Source: an uncultured bacterium (GTDB taxonomy: Bacteria > Babelota > Babeliae > Babelales > Babelaceae). From it: a DNA stretch of 64,000 nucleotides. The stretch's first letter is position 1. Each line of letters opens with the position of its first letter. Positions 771 through 63,544 of the stretch are shown here, in pieces. The stretch covers positions 448,001-512,000 of the forward strand of contig CAWKFG010000001.1 of assembly GCA_963848965.1 (NCBI GenBank). Reading direction: 5' to 3'. A model generated the notes under the pieces. The model worked only from the letters and a program-made list of their open reading frames with translations. It was not told the DNA's origin and searched no databases. A program made the position numbers and the translations under genes.

Positions 771-2012
771 TTACTTTTTTAATGCTATGTAAAGCTCTTG
801 TGTAGAGCTGTCGGTTAGTCTTTTTTGTTGTAACTGTGCTATAGTAGCAGGATACATATGCTCAATAAAGAGACATTTTATATCATTAGTGCTTGTATGA
901 TGCTCGCAAGCATATACTAAACTTTTACTTAGAAGCGTAAGAAGATGCTTACAATCATGTAAGGTTTCCAAGAGATGTGGTTGAAGCGTTTGCATAAAGC
1001 ATGCTGCTATTGCCATCATTACTTCATCAAACCTTAGAGATAAGAGTTCTTCCTTCCAGTTGGCAAGGCATGAGCATGCTGGTTGATTAGATACATTGCA
1101 ATTTACACAGCAAGTATGCCCACCTTTTTTTGAACCAGCAGGAAACAAGAAGTTACCAGGACATTGTTTTCGTATCTCGTTAAATTGCGTAAACATTTTA
1201 ACATCTTCTCGTGCGCTTGCAATAGTATCAATGACAATTATAGGCACGGAGGTATTAGCTGGTAACTGCATTGAGTCAATGGGCACAATCGAATTATCTT
1301 GCACCCAAAAAGTTATAACAGTTGTAGCATGATTACATATATGTTTAGCTCTTAGCACTACAGGTATGTTGTAGAGCTTATTGAGTGTAAGAAATAGAAG
1401 AACTCCAGGCAATTTAGGGTAAACAGTAATTTCTTCTTGGCTGCCTATTTGATCAGCTACCTTTTTGAGCTCTATAGCATCTGAATCAACATTTTCAAGT
1501 AAGGAACGTATATAGTGCATAGTCATATGTGCTAGTTCTTTTTTAGCTTGTAGAAGAAACTCTTCGTTGTTCCAAGAAAGAGTACTATTTTTAGAAATAA
1601 GCATCTGCACGCAATTTTTAGGTTTTACTATAGAGTTGCTTATCCCATTCGCAGTAGCTTTGAGTATATCTCTTATTCTGTATGCTAGATGAATTCTTTC
1701 TGGGTAAGAACTGAAAGCCGAGCACAGTAAAAGATTAAGCGCTAAATATCTTTTATTCTGTTCAAGAAGCGCATCATTCTTACTGATTAACCATTCTTGG
1801 TATATATGGCCTACAATAAGTGCATTGATGTGGCATTGATTGTTACCAGGCATACCATCAAAAAGATAAATATTGCCTTGTTTTATCTCATAGAGTGCTT
1901 GACGTTCTAGAAGAGTTAATACTGTATTCCATCGCTCTTCTACCATTGCTTGTAATAAAGTACTTATGCTCACAAGTACGATAAGTATCTTACTAATACT
2001 GTGTAATAACAT
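771..2012 (-). CDS. Hypothetical exported protein with a Cys-rich segment
   Basis: 413-aa ORF, signal peptide ending LQA-M, CCVNC...CSC cluster. Confidence 0.75.
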   Translation of the reverse strand: MLLHSISKILIVLVSISTLLQAMVEERWNTVLTLLERQALYEIKQGNIYLFDGMPGNNQCHINALIVGHIYQEWLISKNDALLEQNKRYLALNLLLCSAFSSYPERIHLAYRIRDILKATANGISNSIVKPKNCVQMLISKNSTLSWNNEEFLLQAKKELAHMTMHYIRSLLENVDSDAIELKKVADQIGSQEEITVYPKLPGVLLFLTLNKLYNIPVVLRAKHICNHATTVITFWVQDNSIVPIDSMQLPANTSVPIIVIDTIASAREDVKMFTQFNEIRKQCPGNFLFPAGSKKGGHTCCVNCNVSNQPACSCLANWKEELLSLRFDEVMMAIAACFMQTLQPHLLETLHDCKHLLTLLSKSLVYACEHHTSTNDIKCLFIEHMYPATIAQLQQKRLTDSSTQELYIALKK

Positions 2013-2400
2013 GATAATCCTAAAATCAGATAGAAATTAATTAAAATAATGCGAATAATAGTCCTTAAAACTTTCAAAGGACGTACTTATGGCGTTATTT
2101 AAAAAAAGATTGTTCTAAAATAAAGTGTATGGATAGTGTTAAAAATTGAAAAGATAATAGAAAGGTCGGTAAAAAGAAGAGAAAAGAAGCAAAGATATAA
2201 ATAAGTTTGTTGATCGACTCGTTATAGGTATAGATATGGGTATCATAGTATACTCCTTAGGATATGTTAAAAATAATTCAATTTAATAATAGCAAAAGAT
2301 ATAATAAAATCAACAAGGGTTCTTATCTGCAACTTTGACTAAAGATAGAGAAAAACATACAATTAGTAATTGTAAACCTGCAAGTATAAGGAGATATCTT

Positions 2401-4296
2401 TTGAAATTATTATTACTAGCTTTTACTTTTTCTGCTCTAAGCTTGTTTGGTATGGATACAAATGAGCGTAAGTTACTTACTCCTGAAGAGCAGTCTCTTT
2501 TAAATGCTCAATTAATTAATGAGATAGAATATTCTAATGCAAAGCTTACAAAAGTTGATGAATTGTTAAAACGTGGAGCTAATGTTAATGCTCGAGGAGT
2601 TAATAGAGCAATAACTGAAGGATGGACCGTTTTAATGTATGCTGTATATAAAGGCAACGAAGATATAGTTAAGTTACTAGTGGGGCATGGAGCAGACGTT
2701 AATGGTAAAGATACTACTTTTAAGGCCACTGTCTTAATGCATGCTATAGAAGGAAGAAATGTGGCACTAGTAAACTTACTGCTAGAGCTTGGAGCAGATA
2801 TTCATACTCTTGATAAGAGAAATAGCACCGTATTAATGTATGCTCTCTATGAGGGCAATGAAGCTATAATTAACCGACTGCTGGAACTTGGTGTTGATGT
2901 GAATGCACGAGCAGATGATAGTTATTTTGGTCGTGGTGATACAGCACTCCTCATTGCAGCAAAAAGAGGTAATGTTGCTGCCTTAACCAAGCTTGTAAGT
3001 CGTGGTGCTGACATTAATGCTAAAAATTGGCTTGGACAGACAGCCCTCATGTGTGAATTGCAATCAGGAAAAAACAAAGAAATGATTGATAGACTGCTAG
3101 AATTAAAAGCAGATATTCATGCTTGTGATGATAAGAAGCAAACTGTAATAATGTATGCGGCACAGGCAGGAGATGAAGAAATCTTTAAGAAACTTATAGA
3201 GCTTAAGGCTGATGTATATGCTCAAGATAATGGTGAGCGTTTACTACAGTATGCTGTAGAAGGAGGGAATTTAGCTATAGTTAATACTTTAGTAGATTTA
3301 AACTGTAGTATTACCCCAGGCCTCTTAGGAACTGCTGCATATTATGGACGTATACATTTACTAGATAGGTTACTAGAATTGGGCCAGGACATTCATGCTT
3401 GTGGTACTTTAGACAAAACAGTATTAATGTATGCAGTACATGGTAAAAGTCTGGCTTTTGTTAATAGACTCATAGAGCTTGGAGCTGATATCCACGCTAA
3501 AACATATTATGATGGTACAGTTTTAATGCAGGCAGCAGAAGTAGGAAGCGAAGAGATTTTTAATAGGCTATTAGATCTTGGTGTTGATAGTACTCATAAA
3601 GGTGCTTTCGATAAGACTTTATTATCGTGTGCTCTAAAAGGTAGAAAACTAGCTATTATTAATAAAGTAATGCAACTTACTAATACCTTTGCAGTAACAG
3701 CTCAAGAAAAAGAACAGATAATAGCTATTATTGGCCGAAAACTTGATAAAGAGTTTGGACCTTCAGACCTCAAGTTAGTTTGTACTGAGCATCATCAGAA
3801 GTATAAAGCTAACCTACAAGGCTATTTTTATAGAGATAAGTCGACAAAGCGAACATTTCTTACAATTGCTTCTATAATAGGATGTACAAAGAGTATGAAA
3901 ACTATATTAGATACTAATCCTCCTTGCTGGTATGTACAAGCACAAGATTATCTTGGAAGAACTGCTTTAATGTATGCTTATAACAAAGGAGATAAAGACT
4001 GTATAAGAATGCTTATTTCCTCTATTAGAGATGCTATTACAAGAGAGCCTGAATGGGCTGCTGTATGGAAGCGCTCTATGAACCTGAAAGATAAAGATGG
4101 TTTAACTTTACTTGATTATGCTTTAGACCGAGGTGATCTAGAATTTGCACGTGAATTTATTGGTCTAGGATGTAAATGCTTAGCAAGACATCTGCAGAAA
4201 GCTGATTCTATAGGATACAAAGCTATTGTCGCTCTATTATCTGCTGCGGGTAAAATTGTAGACCATACAGGAAAATCGCATTCTCTTTTTAAGTAA
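2401..4296 (+). CDS. Exported ankyrin repeat protein
   Basis: Many T-[AV]-LMYA...G...L...GAD repeats; probable TTG start at 2401 after AAGGAG; signal peptide. Confidence 0.92.
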   Translation: MKLLLLAFTFSALSLFGMDTNERKLLTPEEQSLLNAQLINEIEYSNAKLTKVDELLKRGANVNARGVNRAITEGWTVLMYAVYKGNEDIVKLLVGHGADVNGKDTTFKATVLMHAIEGRNVALVNLLLELGADIHTLDKRNSTVLMYALYEGNEAIINRLLELGVDVNARADDSYFGRGDTALLIAAKRGNVAALTKLVSRGADINAKNWLGQTALMCELQSGKNKEMIDRLLELKADIHACDDKKQTVIMYAAQAGDEEIFKKLIELKADVYAQDNGERLLQYAVEGGNLAIVNTLVDLNCSITPGLLGTAAYYGRIHLLDRLLELGQDIHACGTLDKTVLMYAVHGKSLAFVNRLIELGADIHAKTYYDGTVLMQAAEVGSEEIFNRLLDLGVDSTHKGAFDKTLLSCALKGRKLAIINKVMQLTNTFAVTAQEKEQIIAIIGRKLDKEFGPSDLKLVCTEHHQKYKANLQGYFYRDKSTKRTFLTIASIIGCTKSMKTILDTNPPCWYVQAQDYLGRTALMYAYNKGDKDCIRMLISSIRDAITREPEWAAVWKRSMNLKDKDGLTLLDYALDRGDLEFAREFIGLGCKCLARHLQKADSIGYKAIVALLSAAGKIVDHTGKSHSLFK

Positions 4297-4411: not shown

Positions 4412-4430
4412 AGCGCATGGTAGGAAAAAT

Positions 4431-7398: not shown

Positions 7399-8961
7399 AT
7401 GAATTACTTTACTACAAGATCTTTAAGCGTAGCAGTTATATTTAATTTTTTCCTTATAAGTACATCAGTGGTCTTATGTATGGATGGAAAGGGTTTCATA
7501 GTGCGATCACCAGAGATGAGCCCCTATAGATACGAGCAAGGACTTTCTAATTATTCACATTATCTAATTCAGCGAGAATCTGTTGATTGGCGTTCTTTTT
7601 TTGGACACAGTGAACAACCTAAAAAAAAGATAGAAGCATATAATGGGCCTGACTGTATATCTCCTTTATCAAAAGATCTTGTTAAAAGTATCATTATTCA
7701 GTTACAGAACTCAAAGGACGTTGAAAGCTTTATTAAGTCTGTCAGAGCTTTAGCTAAAGTTAGTAAGCACTTTAATGTTCTTGTAAATAGTCCTGAAATG
7801 ACCACCTTTCTCATTAAGTTACTGAGTGAAAAAGAAAAGATTAAAGAAAGATATGCAGCTATACTCTTAGGAACAGCTGGATCTCTGAATTGGCTCCAAG
7901 AGCATTCTCCTTTTAAACCAGGGACAGAGCCAATAACAATAAAAGAAGCTGTTAAAATAATCATAAAAAGGTATGCAGAAAAATTTATTAGTCGATCAAC
8001 TATTCAAGAGCTTCTTCCTCGTTTTAAAGAAGATTATTATAACGTAGTATTTCCCACAAATGGTAAAACTGCTTTAATACTAGGTATAGAATATGCAATA
8101 GGAGCAATGGGTATTGACGAGGCTGAAGGAGGTATTAATACAATAAAGGCACTTTTGGCGCTTGGGGTAGATCCTAATAAGCCAGATAGGGATGGAAAAT
8201 TGCCTATAAGTTACACGTATATGTCTAAGTGTACTCCACTGTATGAAATACCACGTTTAAAAAAGATTCAAGAATTGCTTATTACAGCAGGAGCAACTAT
8301 ACCTAATGAAGCTTTGCTTTTTGATAATGCATGTGAGCAGTTAGAGCCCCAGCGTCTTTTAACAATAGCATGCTTTTTAGGATCTACAGATTTGCTCAAT
8401 AAAGCACTAGGTAAAGGTGCATCAGCTAATTCCCTTAATAGGTTTGATATATCAGATGTTATTGATGCACGAAACACAGATTTTTTAAAAATAATTGTGC
8501 AAGCGGGGTGTCCGTTAAAAAAGATTTTATCAAAGGATAAAGAAGATACCTATAACGCTTTTTGTAAAGCAGTTGGCTGTAAAGATACGCACATGCTAGA
8601 ATTTCTTATACTGATGGGCTTAGATGTTAATGTTCAAAAAAAAGATATATTTATGGGTACAAAAAGCACTCCACTGAAAGTAGCCGTACTTCTTAAAAAG
8701 CCAGAAATGATAAAATTGCTTCTTAAAGCTGGTGCTGAATTAGGCGATATTACAGATCAATGGGTTTTGGATAGTGCTAAAGAAATTAATCAAGAGCTTA
8801 TACCTCTTTGTCTTATTTGCCTTGATTATCTTGATAAGGCCTGCAATATAATAAAGACAGAATGCGACCATCGCTTTCATAAAGCATGTCTGCAAGACTG
8901 GCATCAAGTAAAAGCCGAATGTCCAGCATGTAGAAATGCTCTTCCTAAAAAGGCCATATAA
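7399..8961 (+). CDS. Exported ankyrin repeat protein with C-terminal RING-H2 finger
   Basis: Ankyrin-like repeats; CLIC-x14-CDHRFHKAC-x10-CPAC fits C3H2C3. Confidence 0.88.
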   Translation: MNYFTTRSLSVAVIFNFFLISTSVVLCMDGKGFIVRSPEMSPYRYEQGLSNYSHYLIQRESVDWRSFFGHSEQPKKKIEAYNGPDCISPLSKDLVKSIIIQLQNSKDVESFIKSVRALAKVSKHFNVLVNSPEMTTFLIKLLSEKEKIKERYAAILLGTAGSLNWLQEHSPFKPGTEPITIKEAVKIIIKRYAEKFISRSTIQELLPRFKEDYYNVVFPTNGKTALILGIEYAIGAMGIDEAEGGINTIKALLALGVDPNKPDRDGKLPISYTYMSKCTPLYEIPRLKKIQELLITAGATIPNEALLFDNACEQLEPQRLLTIACFLGSTDLLNKALGKGASANSLNRFDISDVIDARNTDFLKIIVQAGCPLKKILSKDKEDTYNAFCKAVGCKDTHMLEFLILMGLDVNVQKKDIFMGTKSTPLKVAVLLKKPEMIKLLLKAGAELGDITDQWVLDSAKEINQELIPLCLICLDYLDKACNIIKTECDHRFHKACLQDWHQVKAECPACRNALPKKAI

Positions 8962-10679: not shown

Positions 10680-10807
10680 GTCTTCGCTCTTCGAGCTATC
10701 AGCCTGTATTTTTGCAAAAAAGCAATTGAAGATCTTGATTTTTGATCTCTGTTTGTTATTATAAATTACAGATAGGTTTAAATCATATAATAATAAGGTG
10801 GATATTT

Positions 10808-11428
10808 GTGAATATATTTAAAATAGCAAGTTTGTCTTGCGCTTTTTTAATTTTAGGTACTCTATCTCCTGTAGTTGCGATGGAAATGGCTTATGAGTTT
10901 CCTCATTGTAATTGCTATTGGGTAGAAGAAGGGCGGATTCTCGCTGGTAAATACCCTTTAATTGGTAAAAAAGAGGAACAAGAAGAACAAATACGTAAGT
11001 TTTTAGATGCAGGGATTAACTACTTTGTTGATTTAACTGAAAGAAAAGAGTTAAAAACTAATGGTGGTAAACAGAATCCTTATGCAGAAGAGCTTAAAAA
11101 GGCAGCTCAAAAGCGTGGCATGAAGTTCCGCCATAAAAGAATGCCTATTAAGGATCACAAGGTAACAACCGCTGCACATATGGCAGAAATAGTGGCAAAG
11201 ATTCATAGAGCTGTCTCTAAAGGATATAAGGTTTATATTCATTGTGCAGCTGGTATTGGTCGTACAGGTACAGCCGTTGGCTGTTATTTAAGAAGCAAAG
11301 GGCTCACAGGCGAACAAGCTTTAGGGCTCATTAGTGAATTACGCAAAAAATGCAAAAAACCTATTTGTGATTCACCTCGATCTGACATTCAAAGAGATTT
11401 TGTAAAAAACTTTATTATTAAAGCATAA
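10808..11428 (+). CDS. Exported dual-specificity/PTP-fold phosphatase, copy 1
   Basis: HCAAGIGRTG (CX5R), PIKD acid loop, signal peptide; GTG start 10808 chosen by alignment with the paralogues. Confidence 0.9.
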   Translation: MNIFKIASLSCAFLILGTLSPVVAMEMAYEFPHCNCYWVEEGRILAGKYPLIGKKEEQEEQIRKFLDAGINYFVDLTERKELKTNGGKQNPYAEELKKAAQKRGMKFRHKRMPIKDHKVTTAAHMAEIVAKIHRAVSKGYKVYIHCAAGIGRTGTAVGCYLRSKGLTGEQALGLISELRKKCKKPICDSPRSDIQRDFVKNFIIKA

Positions 11429-11459
11429 TAAGGCTCTTTTACCTACCGTTAAACTTTTG

Positions 11460-11489
11460 AGGCTAGTGCGCTTATGTTCACTAGCCTTT
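11460..11489 (+). terminator. Intrinsic terminator, repeated after each phosphatase copy
   Basis: AGGCTAGTG...CACTAGCCT followed by Ts; near-identical copies at 12445-12473 and 13385-13420. Confidence 0.75.
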
Positions 11490-11789
11490 ACTTTTACTAC
11501 TATTTTCAGGTAGAACGGCTTTGGGTTTAAAGCAGAAGCTAAGCCCTGTTAGGGCTTAGCTTGAGAGGTATTCTTCAATAAGATGTAGTAATAGTGATCT
11601 CTGTAATTTTTGTAAAGATTAGTAGCGGTACTACTTGTTTATGTAAAGCTATAAAACATAGCCTATGGTTATAACGCTTAGTATTAGCTGGTTTTTGTTT
11701 AAAATTGTTTGAAAAAGTTGATTTTTACGAGCTTTTTGCTAGTATAGGTTTATAGTGATTTTAAAATATATAATAGAAGGTAATTGTTT

Positions 11790-12413
11790 ATGAATTTTCT
11801 CAAAATAACGAATTTGCTCTGTATACTTATAATTTCGGGCACTCTATCCCCTGTAATTGCAAAGAAAACTACGCATAATCTTCCTCATGGTAACTGTTAT
11901 TGGGTTGAGGAAGGACGTTTTCTTGCTGGGAAGTATCCTTTGGTTGGTAAAGAGAAGGAAAAACGTGAGCAACTACGTAAATTCTTGGATACTGGGATTA
12001 CTTACTTTATTGATTTAACTGAAAGAAAAGAGTTAAAGGCTAAAGGTGGTAAAAAAGATCCTTATGCAGAATTTATCAAGAAGGAAGCGCAAAAATGTGG
12101 TATGAAATTCCGTCATAAAAGAATGCCTATTAAGGATCACAAGGTGACAACGAAGGCTCATATGGCACAAATCGTGGCGACTATCCACAGGGCTCTTGCT
12201 AGAGGAGAAAAGGTGTATATCCACTGTGCGGCAGGTGTTGGACGTACAGGAACGGCAGTCGGCTGTTATTTGAAGAGCAAGGGGCTTACAGGGCAACAAG
12301 CTTTGGACCGCATTAACAAGTTACGTCAAAATAGAAAAAGACCTCGTAAAAATTCACCACGATCTAAATTACAAAGAAACTTCGTAAAAAGCTTTAACGT
12401 AAAGAGAAAATAA
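11790..12413 (+). CDS. Exported dual-specificity/PTP-fold phosphatase, copy 2
   Basis: HCAAGVGRTG; highly similar to neighbours. Confidence 0.9.
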   Translation: MNFLKITNLLCILIISGTLSPVIAKKTTHNLPHGNCYWVEEGRFLAGKYPLVGKEKEKREQLRKFLDTGITYFIDLTERKELKAKGGKKDPYAEFIKKEAQKCGMKFRHKRMPIKDHKVTTKAHMAQIVATIHRALARGEKVYIHCAAGVGRTGTAVGCYLKSKGLTGQQALDRINKLRQNRKRPRKNSPRSKLQRNFVKSFNVKRK

Positions 12414-12739
12414 GCTCTTTACGAAGTATAAGCTGCTTATTTTGAGGCTAGTGCGCTTTGCTCACTAGCCTTTATTACTAATGAAGCAAAAAATACTATA
12501 ACCAACATTGTATCAGCTTCTCAACCTCTCTCGATGGAACTCACCCCCTCTATTTTAGTAAAGATTATTGGTGTTATTAGTGTATTATATGGGCTTATTG
12601 AACATGTACTACAAGCATAATATTTATTGGCAGAGTATTTCTATTGAAAAATATTTAAAAAACTCTTGATTTTTGCTCAATATTTGCTATTATAAATTTA
12701 CTAAACATTATTAAAATACATAACAAAAGGTGATTATTT

Positions 12740-13351
12740 ATGAATTTTTTCAAAATGAAAACATTTTCTTGCGCTCTTTTAATCGCAGGTGTTCTGTCTC
12801 CTGTAATAGCAAAGCAGACTACGCATAATCTTCCTCATGGTAACTGCTATTGGGTAGAGCAAGGACGTTTCCTTGCTGGTAAGTATCCTTTAGTAGGTAA
12901 AAAGAAGGAAAGACGTGAGCAGGTCCGTAAGTTCATGGACGCAGGTATTAACTACTTTGTTGATTTAACTGAAAAAAGAGAGTTAAAAAAAAGAGGTTCT
13001 TATGCAGAAGAACTTAAAAAGGCAGCTCAAAAGCGAGGTATGAAGTTCCGTCACAAAAGAATGCCTATTAAGGATCATAAAGTGACAACTAAAGCTCATA
13101 TGGTACAAATTGTGCAAATGATTCATAGAGCGCTTGCTAAAGGACATAAAGTGTATATTCACTGTGCAGCGGGTAAAGGCCGTACAGGAACAGCAGTTGG
13201 TTGTTACTTGAAGAGCAAGGGCCTTACAACGCAACAAGCTTTTGATTTTATTGCTAAAGGGCGTAATAACAGAAAAAAACCTCGTAAACCATCACCAGAA
13301 AAGCCGATACAAAGAAACTTTGTAAAGGACTTTAACGTAAAGATAAAGTAA
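12740..13351 (+). CDS. Exported dual-specificity/PTP-fold phosphatase, copy 3
   Basis: HCAAGKGRTG; highly similar to neighbours. Confidence 0.9.
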   Translation: MNFFKMKTFSCALLIAGVLSPVIAKQTTHNLPHGNCYWVEQGRFLAGKYPLVGKKKERREQVRKFMDAGINYFVDLTEKRELKKRGSYAEELKKAAQKRGMKFRHKRMPIKDHKVTTKAHMVQIVQMIHRALAKGHKVYIHCAAGKGRTGTAVGCYLKSKGLTTQQAFDFIAKGRNNRKKPRKPSPEKPIQRNFVKDFNVKIK

Positions 13352-18509: not shown

Positions 18510-19325
18510 CTAATTCTTAATAAGCTTTGCTGTTTTTATCCTAAGGAAGTTAAAAAATTTACTGCTTTTTTCAAATGTTCTCATACGATCAAAATAAGGA
18601 ATGACGTTAAAGTAAGGAGTAGTCGGTCGTTGAGAAAAGAGAAATAACGTTATAGTTGAGATTCCTTTGTTATAAAACACTTTTGAAGCGTTATTTTTAA
18701 TTGCACCGTTGAGGATCTGCGGTGGCACTTCTGCATATGCTGAGATTTGGCAAAGATAGTTAAAATATTCTTCATTATTCATAGGACGTGTACCAAGATG
18801 TACAGTGATAAGCCGTTGTAGTTGGTGTGCTGTAGTATGATTTGCTAATGTATAATGTTCTTCTGGTAAGTAGTCAAAATAGTGTCTTTCATAATATCTT
18901 ACTTGGATACATCTTATATGAATAATTTCATAAAGCTGTAATGCTTTTTTAAGACATTCTAGTAGAAACGGTTTCTCAATATCTTTCTGTACTACTACTC
19001 CTTCTATCCATAGTACGATATTGCGTAACTCTTGTAAGTAAGCATTCTTTTTTCTTGTAAAGGTATCTTGCTTTTTTTCATCAAGTGTAAGATTACTTAT
19101 ATATTCAACTCGTTTGACAATAGTTTTCCAAATACGAGAGATTGTTCTCTTAAGGCTATGTATAGTTCTTTCTTGTAGATGACCGTTTACTTCAATAAGT
19201 GATGGATGTGTTATATTATAATTTAATTGTGGAAAGTACAGTTCTGAATCAGACGCTTTTTCCATTGCAACAATGGTAGTGTTAGAAAGTAGTAAAAAAA
19301 TACAAGGAGCTGTAAGTATATTCAT
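18510..19325 (-). CDS. Hypothetical exported protein
   Basis: 271-aa ORF, signal peptide ending IVA-MEK. Confidence 0.7.
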   Translation of the reverse strand: MNILTAPCIFLLLSNTTIVAMEKASDSELYFPQLNYNITHPSLIEVNGHLQERTIHSLKRTISRIWKTIVKRVEYISNLTLDEKKQDTFTRKKNAYLQELRNIVLWIEGVVVQKDIEKPFLLECLKKALQLYEIIHIRCIQVRYYERHYFDYLPEEHYTLANHTTAHQLQRLITVHLGTRPMNNEEYFNYLCQISAYAEVPPQILNGAIKNNASKVFYNKGISTITLFLFSQRPTTPYFNVIPYFDRMRTFEKSSKFFNFLRIKTAKLIKN

Positions 19326-19928: not shown

Positions 19929-20228
19929 TTAGAGTCCTAAGCGGAATCCAAAACCAATGAATGGAAGGTTAAGTGATGCACCAAATCCAAAGAGTGGTCT
20001 ACACATTGGTTGGATACAACCACATACCGCTTGTGGTATTGCCATTACAGGCGCTGCTACTGGCATAACGTATGCAGGTTGTGCATAATATGCAGCTCTT
20101 TGACAAGGAACAGCTCTTCTTGTATGGCATTGAACACATTGTTCTCCACGTACTGGTTGCATTGCAACTGCAGGAACTGCTGTAGCAAGGAGCGTATAGG
20201 CAAACATACCTAATAATAGTTTTTTCAT
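19929..20228 (-). CDS. Small exported Cys/Pro-rich protein
   Basis: Signal peptide AVA-MQ, AAGGA RBS, ends GFGFRLGL. Confidence 0.7.
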   Translation of the reverse strand: MKKLLLGMFAYTLLATAVPAVAMQPVRGEQCVQCHTRRAVPCQRAAYYAQPAYVMPVAAPVMAIPQAVCGCIQPMCRPLFGFGASLNLPFIGFGFRLGL

Positions 20229-20803: not shown

Positions 20804-22324
20804 ATGCTTTATATGGTACGTACAATTAAACAACTTTGTATTTTTATTTTTTTAAGCATGTGTGTAAGCACAGGAATTGAGCTTATGTGCTCAGGTGAAA
20901 AACGGTATAATGAGCAGGACATGAATAAACGAGCTTTAAAAAGCATGAAAGTTGATGATCTGCTAGCCCAGTGTCGTGCAGTAGATAGTGTACAAAAAAG
21001 CAATAGTACACATGAATTATACAATGGTGTTTCTGACTTAGGATCTTTGCCTGTGCAGATGTCTGGTGCTACATTAGCATTATACGAAAAAGTTCCTGTT
21101 AAAACATGTAGACTTTCTGATATATGTTCTCCTGCACCCTGTAGGCCAAGTGCTCTTTTTTATCATAATGAGAATGATCAGATAGTAGTTGGTTATCAGA
21201 ATGGGGTAATAGGTATTTATCAGACAGAACATCAAACAACTAAGCTATTTTTGGGGCACAATGCTCCTTTAAAAGCCTTGTATTGTAGCAAAGATCTTCT
21301 GATTTCTGCTGCACAAGATGGCGAAGTAAAGCTGTGGGATCTTTTTACGCAGTGTTGTGTTGCTACGTTTAAGCAAGAAGGAACCTATCCAACAAAACTC
21401 TATGTTCATGCTTTTAATACAGATGTGCTTGTTATTGGCAATAATGATGGAAGTATATCATTTTACCACATAAAACGACGAGAACTTATTGCTCATTGTG
21501 CTGGACATCAAAGAGCAGTTACATCGATTATAGCTGTATCGCCCCATCTTCTTTTGACTACTTCTTTAGACGGTTCATGTAAAATGTGGAATAGTAAATC
21601 TCAAGGATGTATTTATACGCTTGAGCTTCAAAAACCACTTTATGCTGTTACTACGCATCCAGAAAACAATAAGCAAGTTATACTATGGTTAGACTCTTCC
21701 ATTAGCATGTGCAAAAAGAAATCAGGTAAGCAGAGGGCACTCTGCAAAGAAAGTGGAAACCCATTGACTGTAGTTACTAACCGCAATGGTTATGAATTTG
21801 TAGGCGGATACTTTGATGGAACAATAGGCATATGGAACAATCGTACTGCTCTCTTTCATAAAATTCATGTACATACTTGTCCTATAAGCTATCTTGATGT
21901 TTATAATGATACTATTCTTATTGGGTGTATAGATGGTACGGTAAAGCTCGGTAACCTCACTAAAGAAGGACTTTTCAATACAGTAGCTGTTTTTAACTGT
22001 ATGCAGGTACCTTTTGGCAATCGTCAGGTACATCCGTCACAAAAACCTTTTTTAGAGATGCCAGTTAAGATCCCTCTTGCTATTCTTTCAGCAATAAAAA
22101 AATCTCCAAAGGTTCCTTTATGCCCTCAAAGTGAAGATAGTCTTGCAGTTCGCTATTATAAGCATCATAGAGATAAGATACCTATGTCTCTAAACTCTTC
22201 AGAAATGGTTGATACAGGTAATCTGCACGTGCCACTATCGGGTTCATTGAGCTTACCGGATATTCCGCGCCTATTTCAAGATGAAATTGCTGATATCACT
22301 GCTAAATCCTTCAGAGTCGACTAA
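20804..22324 (+). CDS. WD40 repeat protein, probably exported
   Basis: GH...SAAQDGEVKLWD, GH...SLDGSCKMWN, DGTIGIWN repeats. Confidence 0.85.
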   Translation: MLYMVRTIKQLCIFIFLSMCVSTGIELMCSGEKRYNEQDMNKRALKSMKVDDLLAQCRAVDSVQKSNSTHELYNGVSDLGSLPVQMSGATLALYEKVPVKTCRLSDICSPAPCRPSALFYHNENDQIVVGYQNGVIGIYQTEHQTTKLFLGHNAPLKALYCSKDLLISAAQDGEVKLWDLFTQCCVATFKQEGTYPTKLYVHAFNTDVLVIGNNDGSISFYHIKRRELIAHCAGHQRAVTSIIAVSPHLLLTTSLDGSCKMWNSKSQGCIYTLELQKPLYAVTTHPENNKQVILWLDSSISMCKKKSGKQRALCKESGNPLTVVTNRNGYEFVGGYFDGTIGIWNNRTALFHKIHVHTCPISYLDVYNDTILIGCIDGTVKLGNLTKEGLFNTVAVFNCMQVPFGNRQVHPSQKPFLEMPVKIPLAILSAIKKSPKVPLCPQSEDSLAVRYYKHHRDKIPMSLNSSEMVDTGNLHVPLSGSLSLPDIPRLFQDEIADITAKSFRVD

Positions 22325-50015: not shown

Positions 50016-50897
50016 ATGAATAAAAGTATTTTTATGAGACTGTTTTTTGCTGGATTTCTTTCTTTTGCTTGTCTATCGCTTACTGCTATGGAGAGGCGGC
50101 CGGTAGTATATAAATATGATATAGAAGATTTTAAAAATAAATTTAAGCAAGCTTTAGAAAGTAACGACCTTTTAGCAGAAGCTCAACGGCTTATGCTTCT
50201 TTTGCCAATGCTTGAAAACCTTAAGGTATGGCAGGAGCTTACGCCAGCTATACAGGAGTATCCTATAACGTTCGAACTTTTAAAAAGAAAATTATCAAGG
50301 GCGGAGTTAAAAAAGTTACGAGATAATCTTTTGGCTAGCTGCCGTATGGTCTATGAATTGAAAGAGTATCTTCAGCGTTTTGAAGAATATGGCCGTCAGC
50401 ATATTAAAAGTCAACTCTTTCGTCCTTACTACGTTAAGCTTCTAGTTTTCTATGGTTTTTATATCTGTATTCTTTTTGTAATTAGATCTTATCTAGCTCA
50501 ATCACCTGTTGTTGAGTTAGAATGGGATTATAACGCAGGAATACAATCATTAATAGCGTCAGGACGTGCTCAAAAAGAAGATATCCCGTTATTGCAAGAA
50601 AAATATCAACAAGCATATCAACAACTTTTGCAAAGATTGAGTGATGAACAAGGTTCTCGTAATAATGCAGATTCTACTCTAGCCTTTACATCTGCATATA
50701 CGCAATTAGAAATCATAATTTTAGTGGTATTTAATGCGTTTGTGCACAGTGGCTATTTTAATGCTGCGTTTGCACCCCATGAGCAACGTTATAGGCAAAT
50801 TTATGACATTCTTGATACTGCAGTTAAGAAAGTAAAGAGTCTTGCTTATGATATAGAGGTTTATCTTAACATTGAAAGTGAAGATCTATATGAATAG
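50016..50897 (+). CDS. Hypothetical exported helical protein with two hydrophobic segments
   Basis: GAGG RBS before ATG 50016; signal peptide ending LTA-MER. Confidence 0.72.
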   Translation: MNKSIFMRLFFAGFLSFACLSLTAMERRPVVYKYDIEDFKNKFKQALESNDLLAEAQRLMLLLPMLENLKVWQELTPAIQEYPITFELLKRKLSRAELKKLRDNLLASCRMVYELKEYLQRFEEYGRQHIKSQLFRPYYVKLLVFYGFYICILFVIRSYLAQSPVVELEWDYNAGIQSLIASGRAQKEDIPLLQEKYQQAYQQLLQRLSDEQGSRNNADSTLAFTSAYTQLEIIILVVFNAFVHSGYFNAAFAPHEQRYRQIYDILDTAVKKVKSLAYDIEVYLNIESEDLYE

Positions 50898-51882
50898 TTT
50901 TATATACGCAGTATTACCACTTTTGCTTTTCGGTACCTTATCATATGGTATGGAACCTGATGTGTCTAATAATCAAAAAAGTTTTCCAGCGGGATTTCCT
51001 ATAGAGCTTAAGCACAACATTTTGAAAGCTCTGCCTGGTAATAGTCATATATTGAATACGCTTGTACGGTATGAAGAAGTAAAAATCACAGAGGAGCTTG
51101 CAGATAAAATAATTACAGCTTTTATATCTCATGCAAGAGATATTGCATCGATTCAGCAGTTTATTCGCTTCTTTACGACTGCTAAGTACAAAAAATTTAG
51201 TGAGGCTCTCGTTAATGCTTTTAAAAGGCTTAAAGCTAAAGGTAATCTTAAAATAGCTGTTTCAGATCCAAATCTTGCTCAATTTACAGCATTACTATCT
51301 ACCTGTGTTTATATCGATTTTAAGTACTTAAGTGAAAAATTAGGTCTAGATATATCGAGAGGAATACCAACTGTTCAACAGCTAAGTCCAGGAAATCAGG
51401 AAAAGCTTGCAAGAAGCATAACTCCTTATTGGTCTAATAAAGGGTTAGATATGTTAATTGCAACTCAAAAACAGTTGACTGAAGCTCTTACTTTGCTTAA
51501 CAGTCGTATTTCTTTGGACCAGACACTAGTAAGGCGTACTACGGTTAAATGGAAAGAAGATGTACGTCGTCATGTTATTGCGGCTAGCATCTGTTTAGCT
51601 CTCTATGCTTTTGAAACATTTCTATTACAGAGCAAGTACACAGGCCTTTCTGAAACTATGTGGTTAGTATTATCAGAAAACTTAGTAATGTTTTTTCGTC
51701 AGGGTACTCGGTTTGTATTTCTATTAAATGTGATTCCTTCTACTCCTGTAGCTTTCGACGCATCTGCTACTTATTATTCAAATGTAGCTGATGTACAACA
51801 AGCAATTGAGCTAGTAGAAAACTCACTTGAAAACTTAAGTAAGTTTATAAAGTTACTAAGTGATATCAAAAAAGTGGAATAA
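50890..51882 (+). CDS. Hypothetical exported helical protein with F-box-like start and hydrophobic segments
   Basis: Signal peptide SYG-MEP, FPIELKHNILKAL; start overlaps the upstream stop. Confidence 0.72.
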   Translation: MNSFIYAVLPLLLFGTLSYGMEPDVSNNQKSFPAGFPIELKHNILKALPGNSHILNTLVRYEEVKITEELADKIITAFISHARDIASIQQFIRFFTTAKYKKFSEALVNAFKRLKAKGNLKIAVSDPNLAQFTALLSTCVYIDFKYLSEKLGLDISRGIPTVQQLSPGNQEKLARSITPYWSNKGLDMLIATQKQLTEALTLLNSRISLDQTLVRRTTVKWKEDVRRHVIAASICLALYAFETFLLQSKYTGLSETMWLVLSENLVMFFRQGTRFVFLLNVIPSTPVAFDASATYYSNVADVQQAIELVENSLENLSKFIKLLSDIKKVE

Positions 51883-54603: not shown

Positions 54604-55143
54604 ATGACAGAGTATGTAAGAGAGCTTTTTTTATCACTTTTAAAACCAACAACCGAGAGTTTGAGTATTGCACAAATGAGCTTGCGAGCAGCACTCATTT
54701 ATCTGCTTACACTCATTTTTATTCGCCTTGGCAAAAGGCGCTTTTTAGCTCGTCCTACCCCTTTTGATGTTATACTATGGCTTGTATTTGGCTCTGTTAT
54801 AAGTAGGTCTATCAATGGTAATGCTCCTTTACTCCCTACGATAGGAGCTGCTGCAATTCTTATTATATTGCATTTTATCTTTTCTATTCTTTCTTATTAT
54901 TCAAGCCGTATTGGGGCACTTGTCAAGGGGACTCCTGTAGTCCTTATTAGAGAAGGCGAAATACAATGGACTGCTATGAAAAAGCATGGTATTACAGAGC
55001 ACGATCTTTTGAGTGCTTTAAGACGTAATGCACAAATACTGAATCCTCGAGAGGTAGAGCTTGCTATGCTTGAGCGCAGCGGAGAAATAAGTGTTATCCC
55101 TTTCAAGAATACTAATTCGTGCGTTCATGTATGTAAAGATTAG
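54604..55143 (+). CDS. DUF421/YetF-family membrane protein
   Basis: R.GK.R......FD, G.P..LI..G.I, DL..ALR, A.LE.SG.ISV. Confidence 0.88.
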   Translation: MTEYVRELFLSLLKPTTESLSIAQMSLRAALIYLLTLIFIRLGKRRFLARPTPFDVILWLVFGSVISRSINGNAPLLPTIGAAAILIILHFIFSILSYYSSRIGALVKGTPVVLIREGEIQWTAMKKHGITEHDLLSALRRNAQILNPREVELAMLERSGEISVIPFKNTNSCVHVCKD

Positions 55144-56444
55144 CTTTGTGCTTCATAACAAAGCATGACAGGAAGTTGTTCCTTATCTGTCCCATAGCCT
55201 CTTTTTGCAATTGCTTTTATCTCTTCAATTGGTATGGGTTTTATCTGGGTATCGTTGCAGAAATACCATTGATTATTATGAAGGACATAAGAAGTATAGT
55301 GACCTCCTTCTGCGCTTCCTGAGTGAATAAGAATTGCTTTAAGCCTATAGAGGGGAAAATGCATACTTTTATCACTGTATTTAGCGAGATCTAAATCTTG
55401 CCAAGGAAATGAAATAGGCCTTAAAATTCGTTTATAACTTTTAGAAGTAAGATCGTATACTTTTCTTTTAAGTCCAATAAAAAAATAATGCCCGGTTTTA
55501 TGCAATACTGTAACGCGAGGCTGTGTTTCAGATTCATATTCTACTTCTTCGAGTTCAAAGAAAGTATCAAGACAATCAGTTAGATGGTTGCAGTCTTGTA
55601 TGGTAAGACTAAGCATCAGGTGTTCTTCTGGTTGAAACTTGTGTCCTATACGTTGAGGATGAAGCTCAATAGAGAATAACGACTTTACTTCTAGATGTTC
55701 TTTGTCTTTTGTTTTTTCTCGGTTGATATCTTCAGTAATAATACAATCGAGAAGCATTTGAATAAATTCAACAGCATCTTGTTGTGAACCTGAAGGCCGT
55801 TGTAAATTTTTCCATCCTATAAGGCACAGCGGTAACAGGTCTACATAAGGTTCTGATGATCGTGTAATAAGACGAATAAACTGTATATAAAGATCTGCGA
55901 TACTTAACGGTTTGTAATAATTAGTATCCTCTTTTTTTAAAAGAGCCTCGTTAAAGTGTGATAATACATACATACTTTGTAATGCTGCATTCATAAAACA
56001 GCGATTGCCGGACTCTTTTGAACTAGGATTCAAAAAACCGCGTAGGGCTGCTGGACGTGCTATTTTTCCCACGCGTTCAATGTCCTTTAGCAGTTCTTCT
56101 AGCATCATGTTTCCAAATTGCTCAAGAGAAAGTTCTCCATACAGAGGGCTAATAATCTTTTCTTTTTTATATTCTTTATCTCGAGTAAATGCTTTAATGT
56201 ACTCAAGTTGTTGTAGTATTTGTTTGAGATCCTCTGAGTTTTTGGAGGAAGCTAAAAGGTCTTGGATACCCATAAGGAATCCTCGAGTGAGAGTTATGCC
56301 TTCAGTTTTTTGAGGTAAATTATGTATAAGATTTTCTATATGGGATCTAAGCTCTTGGTATGGTTCTACATTCATACTATAGAGAGGTATATATCCCAGA
56401 AAGACTGTTACGAGAAAGGATTTTAGCAAAGTTGTTATGTTCAT
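55140..56444 (-). CDS. Exported ubiquitin-specific protease (USP, peptidase C19)
   Basis: Cys box GNRCFMNAALQ, QQDAVEF, LKR, His box YRLKAILIHSG...GGHY...WYFCND; signal peptide. Confidence 0.92.
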   Translation of the reverse strand: MNITTLLKSFLVTVFLGYIPLYSMNVEPYQELRSHIENLIHNLPQKTEGITLTRGFLMGIQDLLASSKNSEDLKQILQQLEYIKAFTRDKEYKKEKIISPLYGELSLEQFGNMMLEELLKDIERVGKIARPAALRGFLNPSSKESGNRCFMNAALQSMYVLSHFNEALLKKEDTNYYKPLSIADLYIQFIRLITRSSEPYVDLLPLCLIGWKNLQRPSGSQQDAVEFIQMLLDCIITEDINREKTKDKEHLEVKSLFSIELHPQRIGHKFQPEEHLMLSLTIQDCNHLTDCLDTFFELEEVEYESETQPRVTVLHKTGHYFFIGLKRKVYDLTSKSYKRILRPISFPWQDLDLAKYSDKSMHFPLYRLKAILIHSGSAEGGHYTSYVLHNNQWYFCNDTQIKPIPIEEIKAIAKRGYGTDKEQLPVMLCYEAQS

Positions 56445-56951: not shown

Positions 56952-57570
56952 ATGAAATTAAGAAATCTTATTGTACTAGCGATCGTCCTTCTCGGAGGAG
57001 CTTTAGAATTAGAAGCTCGTAACGGTAGAGGCGGACGTGGCGGTGGAGGTCGTGGTTTCCATGGAGGTGGACGCGGTTTCAGGTGGCGGAGGACGTTTCC
57101 ATGGCGGAGGACGTTTCCATGGTGGAGGACGCTTCCATGGGAGAGGTTTCCACGGTGGACGCTGGGGCGGCAGATGGGGTCATGGACGCTGGGGCGGTCG
57201 AGGCGGACGCTGGGGTGGCTTTTATCCAGGCTACTACAGCAGCTACTATCCAAGCTATTATACTGCCGATTATTATCCAACTACAACATATGTAGCAGAA
57301 GATTATTATCCATCAGATGAATACTATACAACTTCTTATGCATATCCATCTTATTATAGTTCATATTACTATCCATCATACGGCTACTATCCAGGATACT
57401 ATGGAAGCTGGGGCCGTTGGGGTGGCAGATGGGGTGGCGGACGCTGGGGCCACGGTAGATGGGGTCATGGACGCTGGGGCGGTCGAGGCGGACGCTGGGG
57501 TGGCAGAGGACACTTCGGTGGTCGCGGTGGATTCCGTGGTGGATTCCGCGGTGGTCGTGGCAGACGATAA
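56952..57570 (+). CDS. Exported Gly/Arg-rich and Tyr/Ser-rich low-complexity protein, frameshift near 57081
   Basis: AAGGAG RBS and signal peptide in frame 56952; GGGRFH/GRWGG repeats and the Tyr-rich core continue in frame 57037; terminator hairpin 57582-57607. Confidence 0.75.
57050..57560 (+). repeat. Short tandem GC-rich coding repeats
   Basis: 18-nt unit GG(T/C)GGAGGACG(T/C)TTCCAT x3; block AGATGGGGTCATGGACGCTGGGGCGGTCGAGGCGGACGCTGGGGTGGC duplicated (about 57172 and 57457). Confidence 0.8.
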
Positions 57571-59563: not shown

Positions 59564-60103
59564 ATGAGCATAAGGAATTATATAGGAGTGGTTATGTGTA
59601 GTGCCTCAGTGCTAGCGGGTGAAAGTGAGTTAAAAATTACTTCTTCTTCATTTAATCATGGCAGTTCTATTCCAATGACATTTTCATGTGAAGGAGCTAA
59701 TAAGCCTCCAGCGCTTTCGTGGACAGGAGTGCCCAAAGAGGCTAAGTCTCTTGTGCTTATTGTTGATGATCCTGATGCACCTCATCAACCACAACCATGG
59801 GTCCATTGGGTTGTATTTAATATACCTCCGTCAGTAAAAGGTTTTAGAGCTCCTTTAGATGATAGAGAAAAGCTTGCAGATGGTACCATGCAAGGGAAAA
59901 ACACTTCAAATAAGATTGGCTATGATGGACCATGTCCGCCACATGGCAACCCGCCTCATCGCTATTTTTTTAAGCTTTATGCGTTAGGTATAATGTTGCC
60001 TTTAAAGCCAGGAGCCACAAAAGAGGAAGTAGTAAAGGCAATGCAGGGCCATATTCTTGCTCAAGCAGAGCTTATGGGTACCTATCAACGTAGTAAGAAA
60101 TAA
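59564..60103 (+). CDS. YbhB/YbcL family (PEBP/RKIP-like) protein
   Basis: DDPDAP..PWVHWV, YDGPCPP...HRYFFKLYAL. Confidence 0.92.
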   Translation: MSIRNYIGVVMCSASVLAGESELKITSSSFNHGSSIPMTFSCEGANKPPALSWTGVPKEAKSLVLIVDDPDAPHQPQPWVHWVVFNIPPSVKGFRAPLDDREKLADGTMQGKNTSNKIGYDGPCPPHGNPPHRYFFKLYALGIMLPLKPGATKEEVVKAMQGHILAQAELMGTYQRSKK

Positions 60104-60113
60104 TTACGATAGC

Positions 60114-61505: not shown

Positions 61506-61600
61506 GAGGTAATGCATAGTGTGCTCTCTTATGGTGTACATAAGAGGCACTATTTGTTATTGCTTATGAGAAAAGCACGTTTTATGTGCAGTTTTTTCTC

Positions 61601-63544
61601 TTATTCACTAAAGCACGCTGCTATTGTTGCTAGTGTATTCTGCCATTCTTGGGCTTCAGGCATATGGTTTGCAAGTGCTTGAAGCTGTTCATTATCTTTT
61701 ACAACAAGACCAAGAAGGCGAAGCATTATTCTTAGATATCCTGCTTCTTTAGCAAGAAGTACAAGGTCGATTGAGGGTTTTACACCAACTTTTAAAAGAG
61801 CGTTTACCAGTGTGAGGTTTCCCTTTTCTACTGCTAATCTTAAGAGGGATTCTCCTTCATTCTGTACCTTTTGAAGTAAAATTCCATAAGTATTAATTAA
61901 GAAAGCAGCACCATCAAGAAAGCCGTATTCTAGAGCATAGTCAAGTGCTGTATAACCATACTCATCTTTCAAATTTAAATAAAGAGGGGAGAGATTACGC
62001 TCTTTTAAAAAGTTAAGAACTTCTTGGTGACCAAATGTACATGCGAGGCAGGTAAGCATAAGTGTTGATTGGCTATGTTCAGGGTACGTATCTTTTTGCT
62101 CAAAGTTTAAGGATGCAAATGTTAAAGGATTTTGAAGATATTGTTTTACGTGTTCTTGTTTATACATCTCTAAAAGCCTCAATACAAAGGGATTGTGTGC
62201 TATCTTAAAAATGTTCTCTCCTTGGTCATTTTTGATCTGACAATCAGTTCCGTGCTTTAGCAAGCGTACTACAATATCTTGACGATCTTTTTCTACTGCT
62301 ATCATAAGAGCTGTTTGTTTGCTTTTCAATGACTGAGAATTAGTCCAAGCTTGATGCTTAAGGAGAAGCGATACAGTATTACAATGGCCATTTTGTACTG
62401 CAAACATAAGAGCAGTAAAATGATCAGAATCTTGATGGTCGATATCTGTATGTTTACTAAGTAAAGCTTCAATAGCCTCGTTATTTCCATATATAGCAGC
62501 ATACATAAGGGCAGTTCTACCCTTTTGATCTCGTTCATTAACATCTGAACCAGCTTCAAGAAGCTTAAAAAAGAGTGTTCTGTTGTTCAACTGTATTACT
62601 TTTATAAGAGGAGTTAAGCCATCAACGTCGCGAACGTTAAGATTGGCTTTTGCTGCTATAAGTTTGCTTGCTATAGCAGTATTATTTTTCTGTAAAGAGC
62701 ACGTTAAAGGAGAATAGCAATTTTTTGAAGGATCTATATGAGCAGGTAATGTTAACCCATTAAAAACATTATACAGCTGCATGCAGTTCACATCAGCTCC
62801 ATGTTCTAGTAAGAGTGCAACAAGAGCCTCGTTCTCTCTGTGAGCAGCGATGGTAAGCGCAGTCCAATTGCACATACCAGGTTCATTAATATCTGCCTTT
62901 GCTTCAAGTAATAGTTTCACGAGCTCTATTTTTTGGTGCCCTACTGCGATAGTAAGAGGCGTATTTCCATTCAAGCTCTTTTTATTAACATTAGCTCGAG
63001 CCTTAATAAGTATAGTTACTACTTCTTTATGTCCTTTTCTTACTGCTTTCATTAAGGCTGTTTCTCCTTCGTCATCTTGAGCATCAATCTGCGCGTTGTT
63101 TAGAAGAAGAAAAAGTACCATCTCTGGAAAACCTGCTTCTGCTGCAAGAGTTAGAGCTCTTCTGCCAGAACAGCCGGGTGCATTTATTTCTGCACCATTC
63201 TCTAAAAGAAGCTGTATAAGCTGAATCGACCGTGTAAAAACAGCTGAATGCAACGGTCTGTCTGTGCCCCATAAGGTACAATTTGCCTGAGCTCCTTTTT
63301 GTATAAGCATACGAGCAAGATCTGTATGTTTATAGCACACTGCAAGATTGAGTGCATTATTTAAAGACTCTTGTTTATTAGTACTTTTATCTATAAGAAG
63401 AAAGAGTGCTTTATGGTTGAAAGGAGTTTCACGAATAAGCTTTAGCAGCTGTTGGTAATTATCTTGCTCTTTTTCCATTGCTTGTAAAGAACTGGTGGCA
63501 ATAAGTACGCTAGAGAAAAAAAGAGAAAGCACTAATTTTTGCAT
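61601..63544 (-). CDS. Exported ankyrin repeat protein
   Basis: Many G.TALM.A repeats; signal peptide ending LQA-MEK. Confidence 0.93.
   Translation of the reverse strand: MQKLVLSLFFSSVLIATSSLQAMEKEQDNYQQLLKLIRETPFNHKALFLLIDKSTNKQESLNNALNLAVCYKHTDLARMLIQKGAQANCTLWGTDRPLHSAVFTRSIQLIQLLLENGAEINAPGCSGRRALTLAAEAGFPEMVLFLLLNNAQIDAQDDEGETALMKAVRKGHKEVVTILIKARANVNKKSLNGNTPLTIAVGHQKIELVKLLLEAKADINEPGMCNWTALTIAAHRENEALVALLLEHGADVNCMQLYNVFNGLTLPAHIDPSKNCYSPLTCSLQKNNTAIASKLIAAKANLNVRDVDGLTPLIKVIQLNNRTLFFKLLEAGSDVNERDQKGRTALMYAAIYGNNEAIEALLSKHTDIDHQDSDHFTALMFAVQNGHCNTVSLLLKHQAWTNSQSLKSKQTALMIAVEKDRQDIVVRLLKHGTDCQIKNDQGENIFKIAHNPFVLRLLEMYKQEHVKQYLQNPLTFASLNFEQKDTYPEHSQSTLMLTCLACTFGHQEVLNFLKERNLSPLYLNLKDEYGYTALDYALEYGFLDGAAFLINTYGILLQKVQNEGESLLRLAVEKGNLTLVNALLKVGVKPSIDLVLLAKEAGYLRIMLRLLGLVVKDNEQLQALANHMPEAQEWQNTLATIAACFSE

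Follow-up and report, generated by a model that had tools for sequence, protein, structure and literature searches.

Many exported proteins of an uncultured bacterium of the Babelaceae carry a methionine directly behind the predicted cut site of their signal peptide, most often followed by glutamate. This junction was noted on 11 proteins encoded in a 64,000-nucleotide stretch of the genome (hereafter the window, C1:448001-512000 of genome G000, which has 1.73 Mb, five contigs and 37% G+C), where ankyrin, RING, USP and phosphatase genes lie between dnaA, pgk, ftsW, murD and similar housekeeping genes. We find that the junction is a selected, protein-level and class-specific residue rule at the signal-peptidase site, a conclusion that is well supported by its frequency, its codons, its conservation in homologues and its distribution among protein classes. 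Its carriers account for 241 of 1478 open reading frames (ORFs; 16%, about one in six) and are nearly all eukaryote-like or orphan proteins, probably sent to the host. The Dependentiae, to which the organism belongs, are widespread obligate parasites of protists. Babela massiliensis (PMC4378268) and Chromulinavorax destructans (PMC6561590) belong to the same phylum. Coordinates with a contig prefix refer to the genome and all others to the window, with strands given as + or -.

A methionine rule at signal-peptidase sites

The gene set is crude, consisting of the longest ORFs of at least 80 residues from the first ATG, which cover 87% of the genome. Cleavage sites were predicted with a weight matrix over positions -6 to -1 that was trained on the junctions of this genome and ignores +1. 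The predicted +1 residue is Met in 192 of 511 signal peptides (38%), a 21.6-fold excess over background (binomial p about 1e-195), and no other residue exceeds 1.4-fold at this position. A first, strict detector, which predicts no cleavage site and requires that Met immediately precede whichever charged residue comes first behind the hydrophobic run, selected 153 of 587 signal-peptide-like proteins (26%); neighbouring positions in the same test hold Met in 0.7-4.6%, and Met makes up 1.74% of all residues. This detector under-counts, as 8 of the 11 window sites were missed. A looser scan for junctions returned 295 matches, with some membrane-protein false positives among them, and the total of 241 carriers is the union of two stricter sets. 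Under a loose rule for hydrophobic N-termini, 714 of the 1478 ORFs (48%) resemble signal peptides or anchors, some of them normally cytoplasmic enzymes. This share is of the same order as the published figure for C. destructans, for which the available text reports signal peptides on 44% of coding sequences and on 78% of ankyrin proteins (PMC6561590).

The consensus comprises a leader of mostly 18-21 residues and the junction [LIV]-[YFLQ]-[AGS]↓Met-Glu(Gln/Lys)-[K/P/Q/R], where the arrow marks the predicted cut. In the strict set, Glu occupies +2 in 120 of 153 cases (78%), position -1 is A, G, S, C or T in 148 and position -3 is L, I, V, A, S or T in 135. The looser scan (n = 295) gives a +2 spectrum of 140 E, 37 Q, 27 K and 15 S, with N, L and D at 8 each. 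The information content reaches 5.85 bits at Met and is at most 0.86 bits from +3 to +8, falling to 0.1-0.3 by +4 to +8. Lys is the commonest residue right after the start Met of the leaders, L, I and F abound at -16 to -7, and the median n-region charge is +1; the leaders thus have the charged n-region, the hydrophobic h-region and the c-region with small residues at -1 and -3 that are expected of Sec substrates cut by signal peptidase I (SPase I). In the original prediction the cleavage sites had been judged by eye, and a cut elsewhere would have spoken against it; the -3/-1 pattern puts the cut directly before Met. Leader length, hydrophobicity and n-region charge are alike in carriers and in other signal peptides, and a distinct leader type for the carriers was rejected on this ground. 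BLAST groups the 220 core carriers into 79 clusters, of which 66 hold a single protein, and it follows that the motif recurs in unrelated proteins. Carriers are moderately clustered on the chromosome, where 68 pairs of them are adjacent and 39 would be expected.

The rule is restricted to certain classes of protein. In a contiguous 400-kb sample (C4:472001-872000), the 47 carriers comprise 29 ankyrin proteins (three with zf-MYND), one ADP-ribosylglycohydrolase, one PLA2_B protein and 16 proteins without a family. A further 98 non-ankyrin carriers include 8 WD40, 11 C2H2 zinc-finger, 5 LRR, 1 TPR, 1 RING, 1 DnaJ, 5 AAA, 1 MutS_V, 1 FGase and 1 DUF6829 protein, 61 without a family and two false positives (a DNA polymerase III subunit and a permease). 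The proteins of the 400-kb sample that lack the Met include five solute-binding proteins, two secretins, Amidase_3, Peptidase_M23, NamZ and Trypsin_2. Envelope housekeeping proteins therefore do not share the residue, and an equal frequency of +1 Met in housekeeping export, which would have undone the original prediction, was not observed. Ankyrin proteins make up 29 of the 47 carriers and 5 of the 85 other signal-peptide-like proteins of this sample (Fisher p = 4e-12); several of the 85 are cytoplasmic enzymes wrongly caught by the loose rule. Seven of these 85 possess the junction after all (five ankyrin proteins, one C2H2 protein and one thioredoxin-domain protein) and had escaped detection on account of a Pro or a charged residue in their c-region; since the strict detector missed all five ankyrin proteins filed as lacking the motif, the Fisher test is conservative. 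Across the whole genome, 122 of 164 ankyrin-like proteins are carriers by rule and about 18 more by eye, the non-carriers being mostly N-terminally truncated fragments.

Two groups of carriers deserve mention in their own right. A tandem array at C1:233097-241860 encodes at least eight exported C2H2 proteins with up to ten fingers each and near-identical leaders; their junctions, YS↓MQE or YT↓MQE, place eukaryote-type DNA-binding domains behind a bacterial export signal. At C1:404295-407327, a 1011-residue exported MutS-like ATPase with a Met junction has MutS domain V as its sole match.

The level at which selection acts was assessed from ribosome-binding sites and codons. A Shine-Dalgarno 4-mer in the interval from -20 to -4 is present at 53% of the upstream starts of 200 carriers, at 54% of those of 434 other signal-peptide genes and at 34% of those of 570 non-signal genes. 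It precedes 2.5% of junction ATGs, and 10% of all 6616 in-frame internal ATGs. The internal ATG, for which a ribosome-binding site of its own had been suggested as a check, has none as a rule, and the refutation by which the junction Met would be the true start fails. Real starts have Lys as second residue in 16-31% and Glu in 7%. The Glu codons at +2 are GAA and GAG in a ratio of 93:47, compared with 67:33 genome-wide, and the codons at -1 follow genome usage; such ordinary synonymous codon use indicates selection on the protein rather than on the DNA. The genome-like codon use at +2 and -1, together with the lack of conserved non-coding positions, led us to reject a motif at the DNA level, be it a site of recombination or a ribosome-binding site embedded in the gene.

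Conservation is also evident beyond this genome. Five of six database homologues of the USP protein (25-69% identity) have a signal peptide directly followed by Met and then by Asn, Glu or Gln, and two of these five, devoid of the N-terminal helical region, have Met at the cut site directly before the catalytic domain. Of nine signal-peptide-bearing homologues of the DUF6829 protein, seven retain the Met, which is still in place at about 50% identity next to variable +2 and +3 residues. The spread of the rule was surveyed with the same pipeline in 100-200-kb samples of 18 other Babeliales genomes, in which Met occupies the predicted +1 in 0 to 35% of cases. The counts are 19/54 in G002, 7/20 in G027, 11/33 in G032, 6/30 in G004, 8/43 in G010 and 6/31 in G018; 3/16 in G044, 3/18 in G003, 4/29 in G006, 3/23 in G068, 3/24 in G062 and 3/32 in G034; and 2/22 in G019, 1/17 in G043, 1/28 in G029, 1/33 in G050, 1/36 in G011 and 0/17 in G061. 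With small samples, and with genomes that are related and hence not independent, the counts are to be read as a description of the spread and not as a test of it; the genomes of low frequency double as negative controls of the method. At the dnaA loci of 80 other species, taken from the best 80 DnaA relatives in public genomes, +1 Met was found in 32 of 407 signal peptides (7.9%, against a background of 1.9%) and in 24 of the 80 loci.

Junctions within the window

The start codon, leader length and Met codon were checked for each of the 11 junctions, and all are present in the sequence. The domains claimed for them also hold by Pfam, namely four ankyrin proteins, one of which has a RING finger in addition, and a UCH/USP protein; among the remaining carriers, one is a dual-specificity phosphatase and five have no Pfam family. 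There is no ankyrin-like protein in the window without the junction.

The first ankyrin-repeat protein (2401-4296, +) starts with TTG and has a leader of 17 residues ending at LFG↓MDTN (Met codon 2452-2454), and the second (7399-8961, +), with the C-terminal RING finger, has a leader of 27 residues and the junction VLC↓MDGK (7480-7482). The third, of 718 residues (26547-28703, +), reads SFS↓MKRE after 19 residues (26604-26606), and the fourth, of 647 residues (61601-63544, -), reads LQA↓MEKE after 22 (63476-63478). The UCH/USP ubiquitin carboxyl-terminal hydrolase (55140-56444, -) has a leader of 23 residues and the junction LYS↓MNVE (56373-56375). The orphan proteins comprise one of 413 residues without a Pfam match (771-2012, -; leader of 22 residues, LQA↓MVEE, Met codon 1944-1946), one of 271 residues (18510-19325, -; 20 residues, IVA↓MEKA, 19263-19265), a small one of 99 residues (19929-20228, -; 22 residues, AVA↓MQPV, 20160-20162) and two at 50016-50897 (+; 24 residues, LTA↓MERR, 50088-50090) and 50890-51882 (+; 20 residues, SYG↓MEPD, 50950-50952).

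The dual-specificity phosphatase (10808-11428, +) starts with GTG and has a leader of 24 residues ending at VVA↓MEMA (Met codon 10880-10882). It is the first of three tandem phosphatases (10742-13351, +) with near-identical leaders, of which the other two (11784-12413, + and 12740-13351, +) lack the Met and read VIA↓KKTT and VIA↓KQTT; Met-Glu is thus replaced by Lys-Lys and Lys-Gln. As these paralogues share the leader without the Met, the leader must be translated and the Met is not obligatory in this phosphatase family, which makes the trio a natural contrast set. Judged from the sequence, both non-ATG starts in the window appear credible: the TTG at 2401 because AAGGAG lies 5' of it at the right distance, and the GTG at 10808 because it aligns with the ATG starts of the leaders of the two paralogues.

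One further match of the rule (39111-40607, GAA↓MYWY) belongs to a membrane-anchored thioredoxin-reductase-like protein and is probably a false positive. Two adjacent genes at 33827-36430 (-) and 36493-38949 (-), for proteins of 867 and 818 residues, encode by appearance FtsH-derived exported or anchored ATPases without a Met junction. An ORF at 57037-57570 (+), which overlaps other short ORFs, would encode a low-complexity repeat of GGGRFH units, rich in Gly, Arg and His, and behind it a tail rich in Tyr and Pro.

Possible roles of the Met-Glu N-terminus

Eukaryote-like proteins number in the hundreds in Dependentiae, which are nevertheless not known to possess a dedicated apparatus for the injection of effectors. 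The genome, rated 88.7% complete, holds two T2SSE ATPases and two secretins, and searches for VirB4, FHIPEP and VipB gave no match in it. Its one Peptidase_S26 match is lepB (C1:323737-324447, 123 bits), which lies about 2 kb from the gene for one of the T2SSE-family ATPases (409 residues; C1:323737-327401 in all). Excerpts of PMC4776705 describe gspD as present in two copies in all seven TM6 genomes studied.

We tentatively propose, with a confidence that stays somewhat below even chances, that Met-Glu is a selected mark that distinguishes secreted cargo from periplasmic residents and is perhaps read for export across the outer membrane. Host-directed proteins would be made with ordinary Sec signal peptides and a cut site of the type [LIV]-x-[AGS]↓, and cleavage by the single LepB would yield a mature chain beginning with Met-Glu, while resident envelope proteins would have the same kind of leader and a different N-terminus. 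The most likely reader would be a periplasmic component of the second export step, either in a type II-type secretin pathway or in vesicles. We infer that the cut falls exactly before Met, that the proteins are delivered to the host and that an export machine reads the mark; this fits best the lineage-specific sorting signal for host delivery that the original prediction had put forward, of which the class specificity, the conservation and the protein-level selection are observed. The cargo mark is favoured because Met separates presumed secreted from periplasmic proteins that have the same kind of leader, and because the lineage needs a cheap and evolvable tag for a large, fast-changing repertoire. 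That Glu, Gln and Lys are strongly preferred to Asp and Asn would point to recognition by a specific pocket rather than to generic mimicry of substrates of the eukaryotic acetyltransferase NatB. In its stronger form, in which Met-Glu would be a short, transplantable linear signal that routes some 240 unrelated proteins from the periplasm through the outer membrane to the host, in a phylum for which Sec and a type II-like system are the sole systems detected, the proposal is possible and rather doubtful.

Several observations weigh against the cargo mark. No candidate reader of Met-Glu was found among those examined (a second LepB, ClpS and an acetyltransferase): a dedicated second signal peptidase was rejected on the single Peptidase_S26 match, and a ClpS-type binder of N-termini had no match in this genome of 88.7% completeness. 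A RimJ/RimL-type GNAT acetyltransferase (Acetyltransf_3; C4:849042-849734) has a signal-peptide-like N-terminus (IMA↓EIIV), but as a modifying enzyme it does not track the rule, being present in 6 of 31 genomes including this one and not found, with one query, in the rule-following G002, G027 and G018. The +2 residue varies with lineage, being Glu, Gln or Lys in G000, G002, G006 and G018, Val or Ile in G010 and G027, Pro in G062 and Asp in others. The ADP-ribosylglycohydrolase has matches in 4 of 31 genomes including G000, too few cases for statistics, and its orthologues in G021 and G010 have signal peptides without Met, so that export in other lineages does not need the residue. Exceptions to the class rule occur on both sides: the thioredoxin-domain carrier could be a periplasmic resident, the two phosphatase paralogues are eukaryote-like and have the leader without the Met, and a WD40 beta-propeller protein in the window (20804-22324, +) has a signal-peptide-like N-terminus without a Met junction. 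A tag of two residues carries little information, and the type II secretion signals known so far are conformational rather than linear. Finally, the Bacteroidetes follow a Q-rule, by which Gln stands at +1 of SPase I substrates and is cyclised to pyroglutamate (excerpts of PMC5837995 and PMC10653852), and in the available part of PMC5837995 the data speak against a sorting role.

A role on the host side is nearly as likely as the cargo mark, and the two do not exclude each other; taken by itself, we regard it as a possible though not a probable explanation. Met-Glu would mimic a normal eukaryotic cytosolic N-terminus and protect the protein from aminopeptidases or N-degron pathways, perhaps after acetylation, with the Met retained because Glu, Gln or Lys follows it. 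It is consistent with this explanation that the rule is confined to proteins with eukaryote-type domains, which must act in the host cytosol or nucleus, and that the Met-retaining residues E, Q, K, D and N occupy +2 in 220 of the 295 matches of the looser scan, compared with 37 for S, A, G, P, T and V, some of which are false positives. A bacterial reader would not be needed, in line with the searches above. The mark would then be a class-restricted counterpart of the Q-rule, in which pyroglutamate stabilises exported proteins and which is, in the excerpts of PMC10653852 and PMC5837995, an earlier example of a +1 rule that runs through a whole lineage and serves stability, not sorting. The +2 spectrum is nevertheless difficult to reconcile with simple mimicry of NatB substrates: Asp and Asn are equally good substrates and occur 8 times each against 140 for Glu, with background frequencies of 4.5% for Asp and 6.3% for Glu, and relatives use Met-Val, Met-Ile and Met-Pro. 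The Arg/N-degron pathway treats N-terminal Ala, Ser, Gly and Thr as stabilising too and therefore does not require Met, and NatB modifies chains while they are being made on the ribosome, not proteins that arrive by import. The N-terminal mimicry suggested by the original prediction is thus retained as a rival to the cargo mark, without the rare Asp and Asn being accounted for by its NatB form.

It is unlikely that Met-Glu is simply a processing optimum, which would make cleavage by LepB as fast or as clean as possible, or passage through Sec as efficient as possible, would have been selected on abundant cargo of fast turnover and would not be read afterwards. The single lepB gene accords with it, as do the better site scores over -6 to -1 (median 7.5 in carriers against 6.2 in other signal peptides), although the latter are weak evidence because the matrix was trained on carriers. 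Sec export benefits from acidic residues near the start of the mature chain. Housekeeping envelope proteins, however, also need efficient processing and lack Met-Glu, Lys and Arg are frequent at +2 and +3 of the junctions (MKR, MEK), and the first charged residue of non-carriers exhibits no preference for Glu (144 E, 119 K, 86 D and 85 R).

Less probable still is an evolutionary relic, in which genes that were already complete gained signal-peptide code at their 5' end and their former initiator Met stayed behind without a present function. This explanation draws on the DUF6829 family, whose signal-less homologues in fungi and other bacteria start 13-27 residues before a conserved YPE[ML] block; in the copies from Dependentiae, the junction Met precedes the same block by about 27 residues. 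For this reason such grafting, which the original prediction had raised, is possible as the origin of the junction. As a present-day explanation it is contradicted by the frequency of Glu behind the junction Met, far above that at real starts, by the preservation of the Met in the USP and DUF6829 homologues while +2, +3 and the leader vary, by its position right at the cut site in the USP homologues without the helical region, and by an enrichment that is confined to one protein class.

It is hardly credible that the junction ATG is a true or alternative start, with the hydrophobic stretch untranslated or a second, cytosolic isoform made: it is the first ATG of the frame in two window genes (2452 and 10880), and at least one database gene model (P0010) begins at the equivalent Met, but the scarcity of Shine-Dalgarno sequences before junction ATGs, the AAGGAG upstream of the TTG at 2401, the complete n-, h- and c-regions of leaders conserved as protein among paralogues and a +2 spectrum unlike that of real starts all contradict it.

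Comparison with known systems

A published description of the Met rule was not found in the full-text literature, which leaves subscription journals and supplementary tables aside, and the passages at hand from the three main genome papers on Dependentiae say nothing of a rule for residues at the cleavage position; PMC6561590 does not contain the word "motif" at all, and PMC4378268 has it twice, in other contexts. New here are a count over the whole genome, tests on ribosome-binding sites and on codons, the comparison of cargo with envelope proteins, a survey that covers 18 genomes and 80 loci, and negative searches for a reader or modifier. The Dependentiae ankyrin secretomes described in the available parts of PMC4378268 and PMC6561590 resemble the present one in their very many signal-peptide proteins, in the leaders on most ankyrin proteins and in a type II system as the sole secretion system detected. 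As the rule separates about 240 presumed host-directed proteins from resident envelope proteins, it would allow effectors, orphans included, to be listed from sequence in any Babeliales genome. It also provides a handle on how a bacterium with two membranes, and with no systems besides Sec and a type II-like one, selects its cargo, a long-standing problem of type II secretion. For annotation it is a warning, since gene callers may start at the junction ATG and lose the signal peptide, P0010 being one such model.

Signals at other positions do not account for the carriers. No shared C-terminal signal was detected in the 241 carriers, whose last 12 positions contain at most 0.33 bits and whose last 30 residues are close in composition to those of other proteins, and on this basis a C-terminal domain of the T9SS type and a type IV E-block signal were rejected. 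Type IV prepilins do not match either, as the hydrophobic stretch lies before the cut, hydrophilic residues follow the Met and Glu is at +2, not +5. In the +2 sorting rule of the lipobox and in the surface-export signal of Bacteroidetes lipoproteins, residues at or after the cut decide the destination of the protein. These signals differ in that they need Cys at +1 and signal peptidase II, whereas the +1 residue here is Met; Cys is found at +1 in 10 of 511 signal peptides (1.4-fold).

Host-targeting motifs just behind a signal peptide are known from Plasmodium (PEXEL) and from oomycetes (RxLR), and the N-terminus left by PEXEL processing, x-E/Q/D, resembles the Met-E/Q described here. A Y/F/WxC motif close behind the signal peptide is reported for effector candidates of powdery mildews (excerpts of PMC3582587). 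The common feature is a short linear motif behind a classical signal peptide on hundreds of unrelated, fast-evolving effector candidates. PEXEL and RxLR differ in being eukaryotic and in lying 15-30 residues downstream, whereas the present motif is bacterial and located exactly at the signal-peptidase site. Neither RxLxE/Q/D nor RxLR emerges 15-30 residues past the cut, information beyond +2 being at most 0.86 bits; in distinction to PEXEL, positions +3 to +8 are unconserved and there is no evidence of a second protease. Should Met-Glu prove to be a linear export signal, bacteria would have their counterpart of PEXEL, and type II-type pathways their first cargo signal of a linear kind.

The nearest published parallel is the Bacteroidetes Q-rule. 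Both are lineage-specific, proteome-scale +1 preferences on ordinary Sec/SPase I signal peptides that fix the mature N-terminus, to judge from the excerpts of PMC5837995 and PMC10653852. The residue and the cargo differ: in those excerpts the Q-rule concerns Gln and most SPase I substrates, periplasmic residents included, and the rule described here concerns Met and only eukaryote-like or orphan cargo, with a +2 preference for Glu, Gln or Lys as part of the motif. Gln itself occurs at +1 in 20 of 511 signal peptides of this genome (0.9-fold), and an enzyme that modifies the new N-terminus is not known here, no search aimed at a glutaminyl cyclase having been made. A DUF6829 homologue with a signal peptide, P0019, has Gln at the predicted +1 (IFA↓QENV), as the Q-rule would predict. 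The Met rule can be regarded as a second case, after the Q-rule, of a lineage that has rewritten the +1 position of its signal-peptidase sites.

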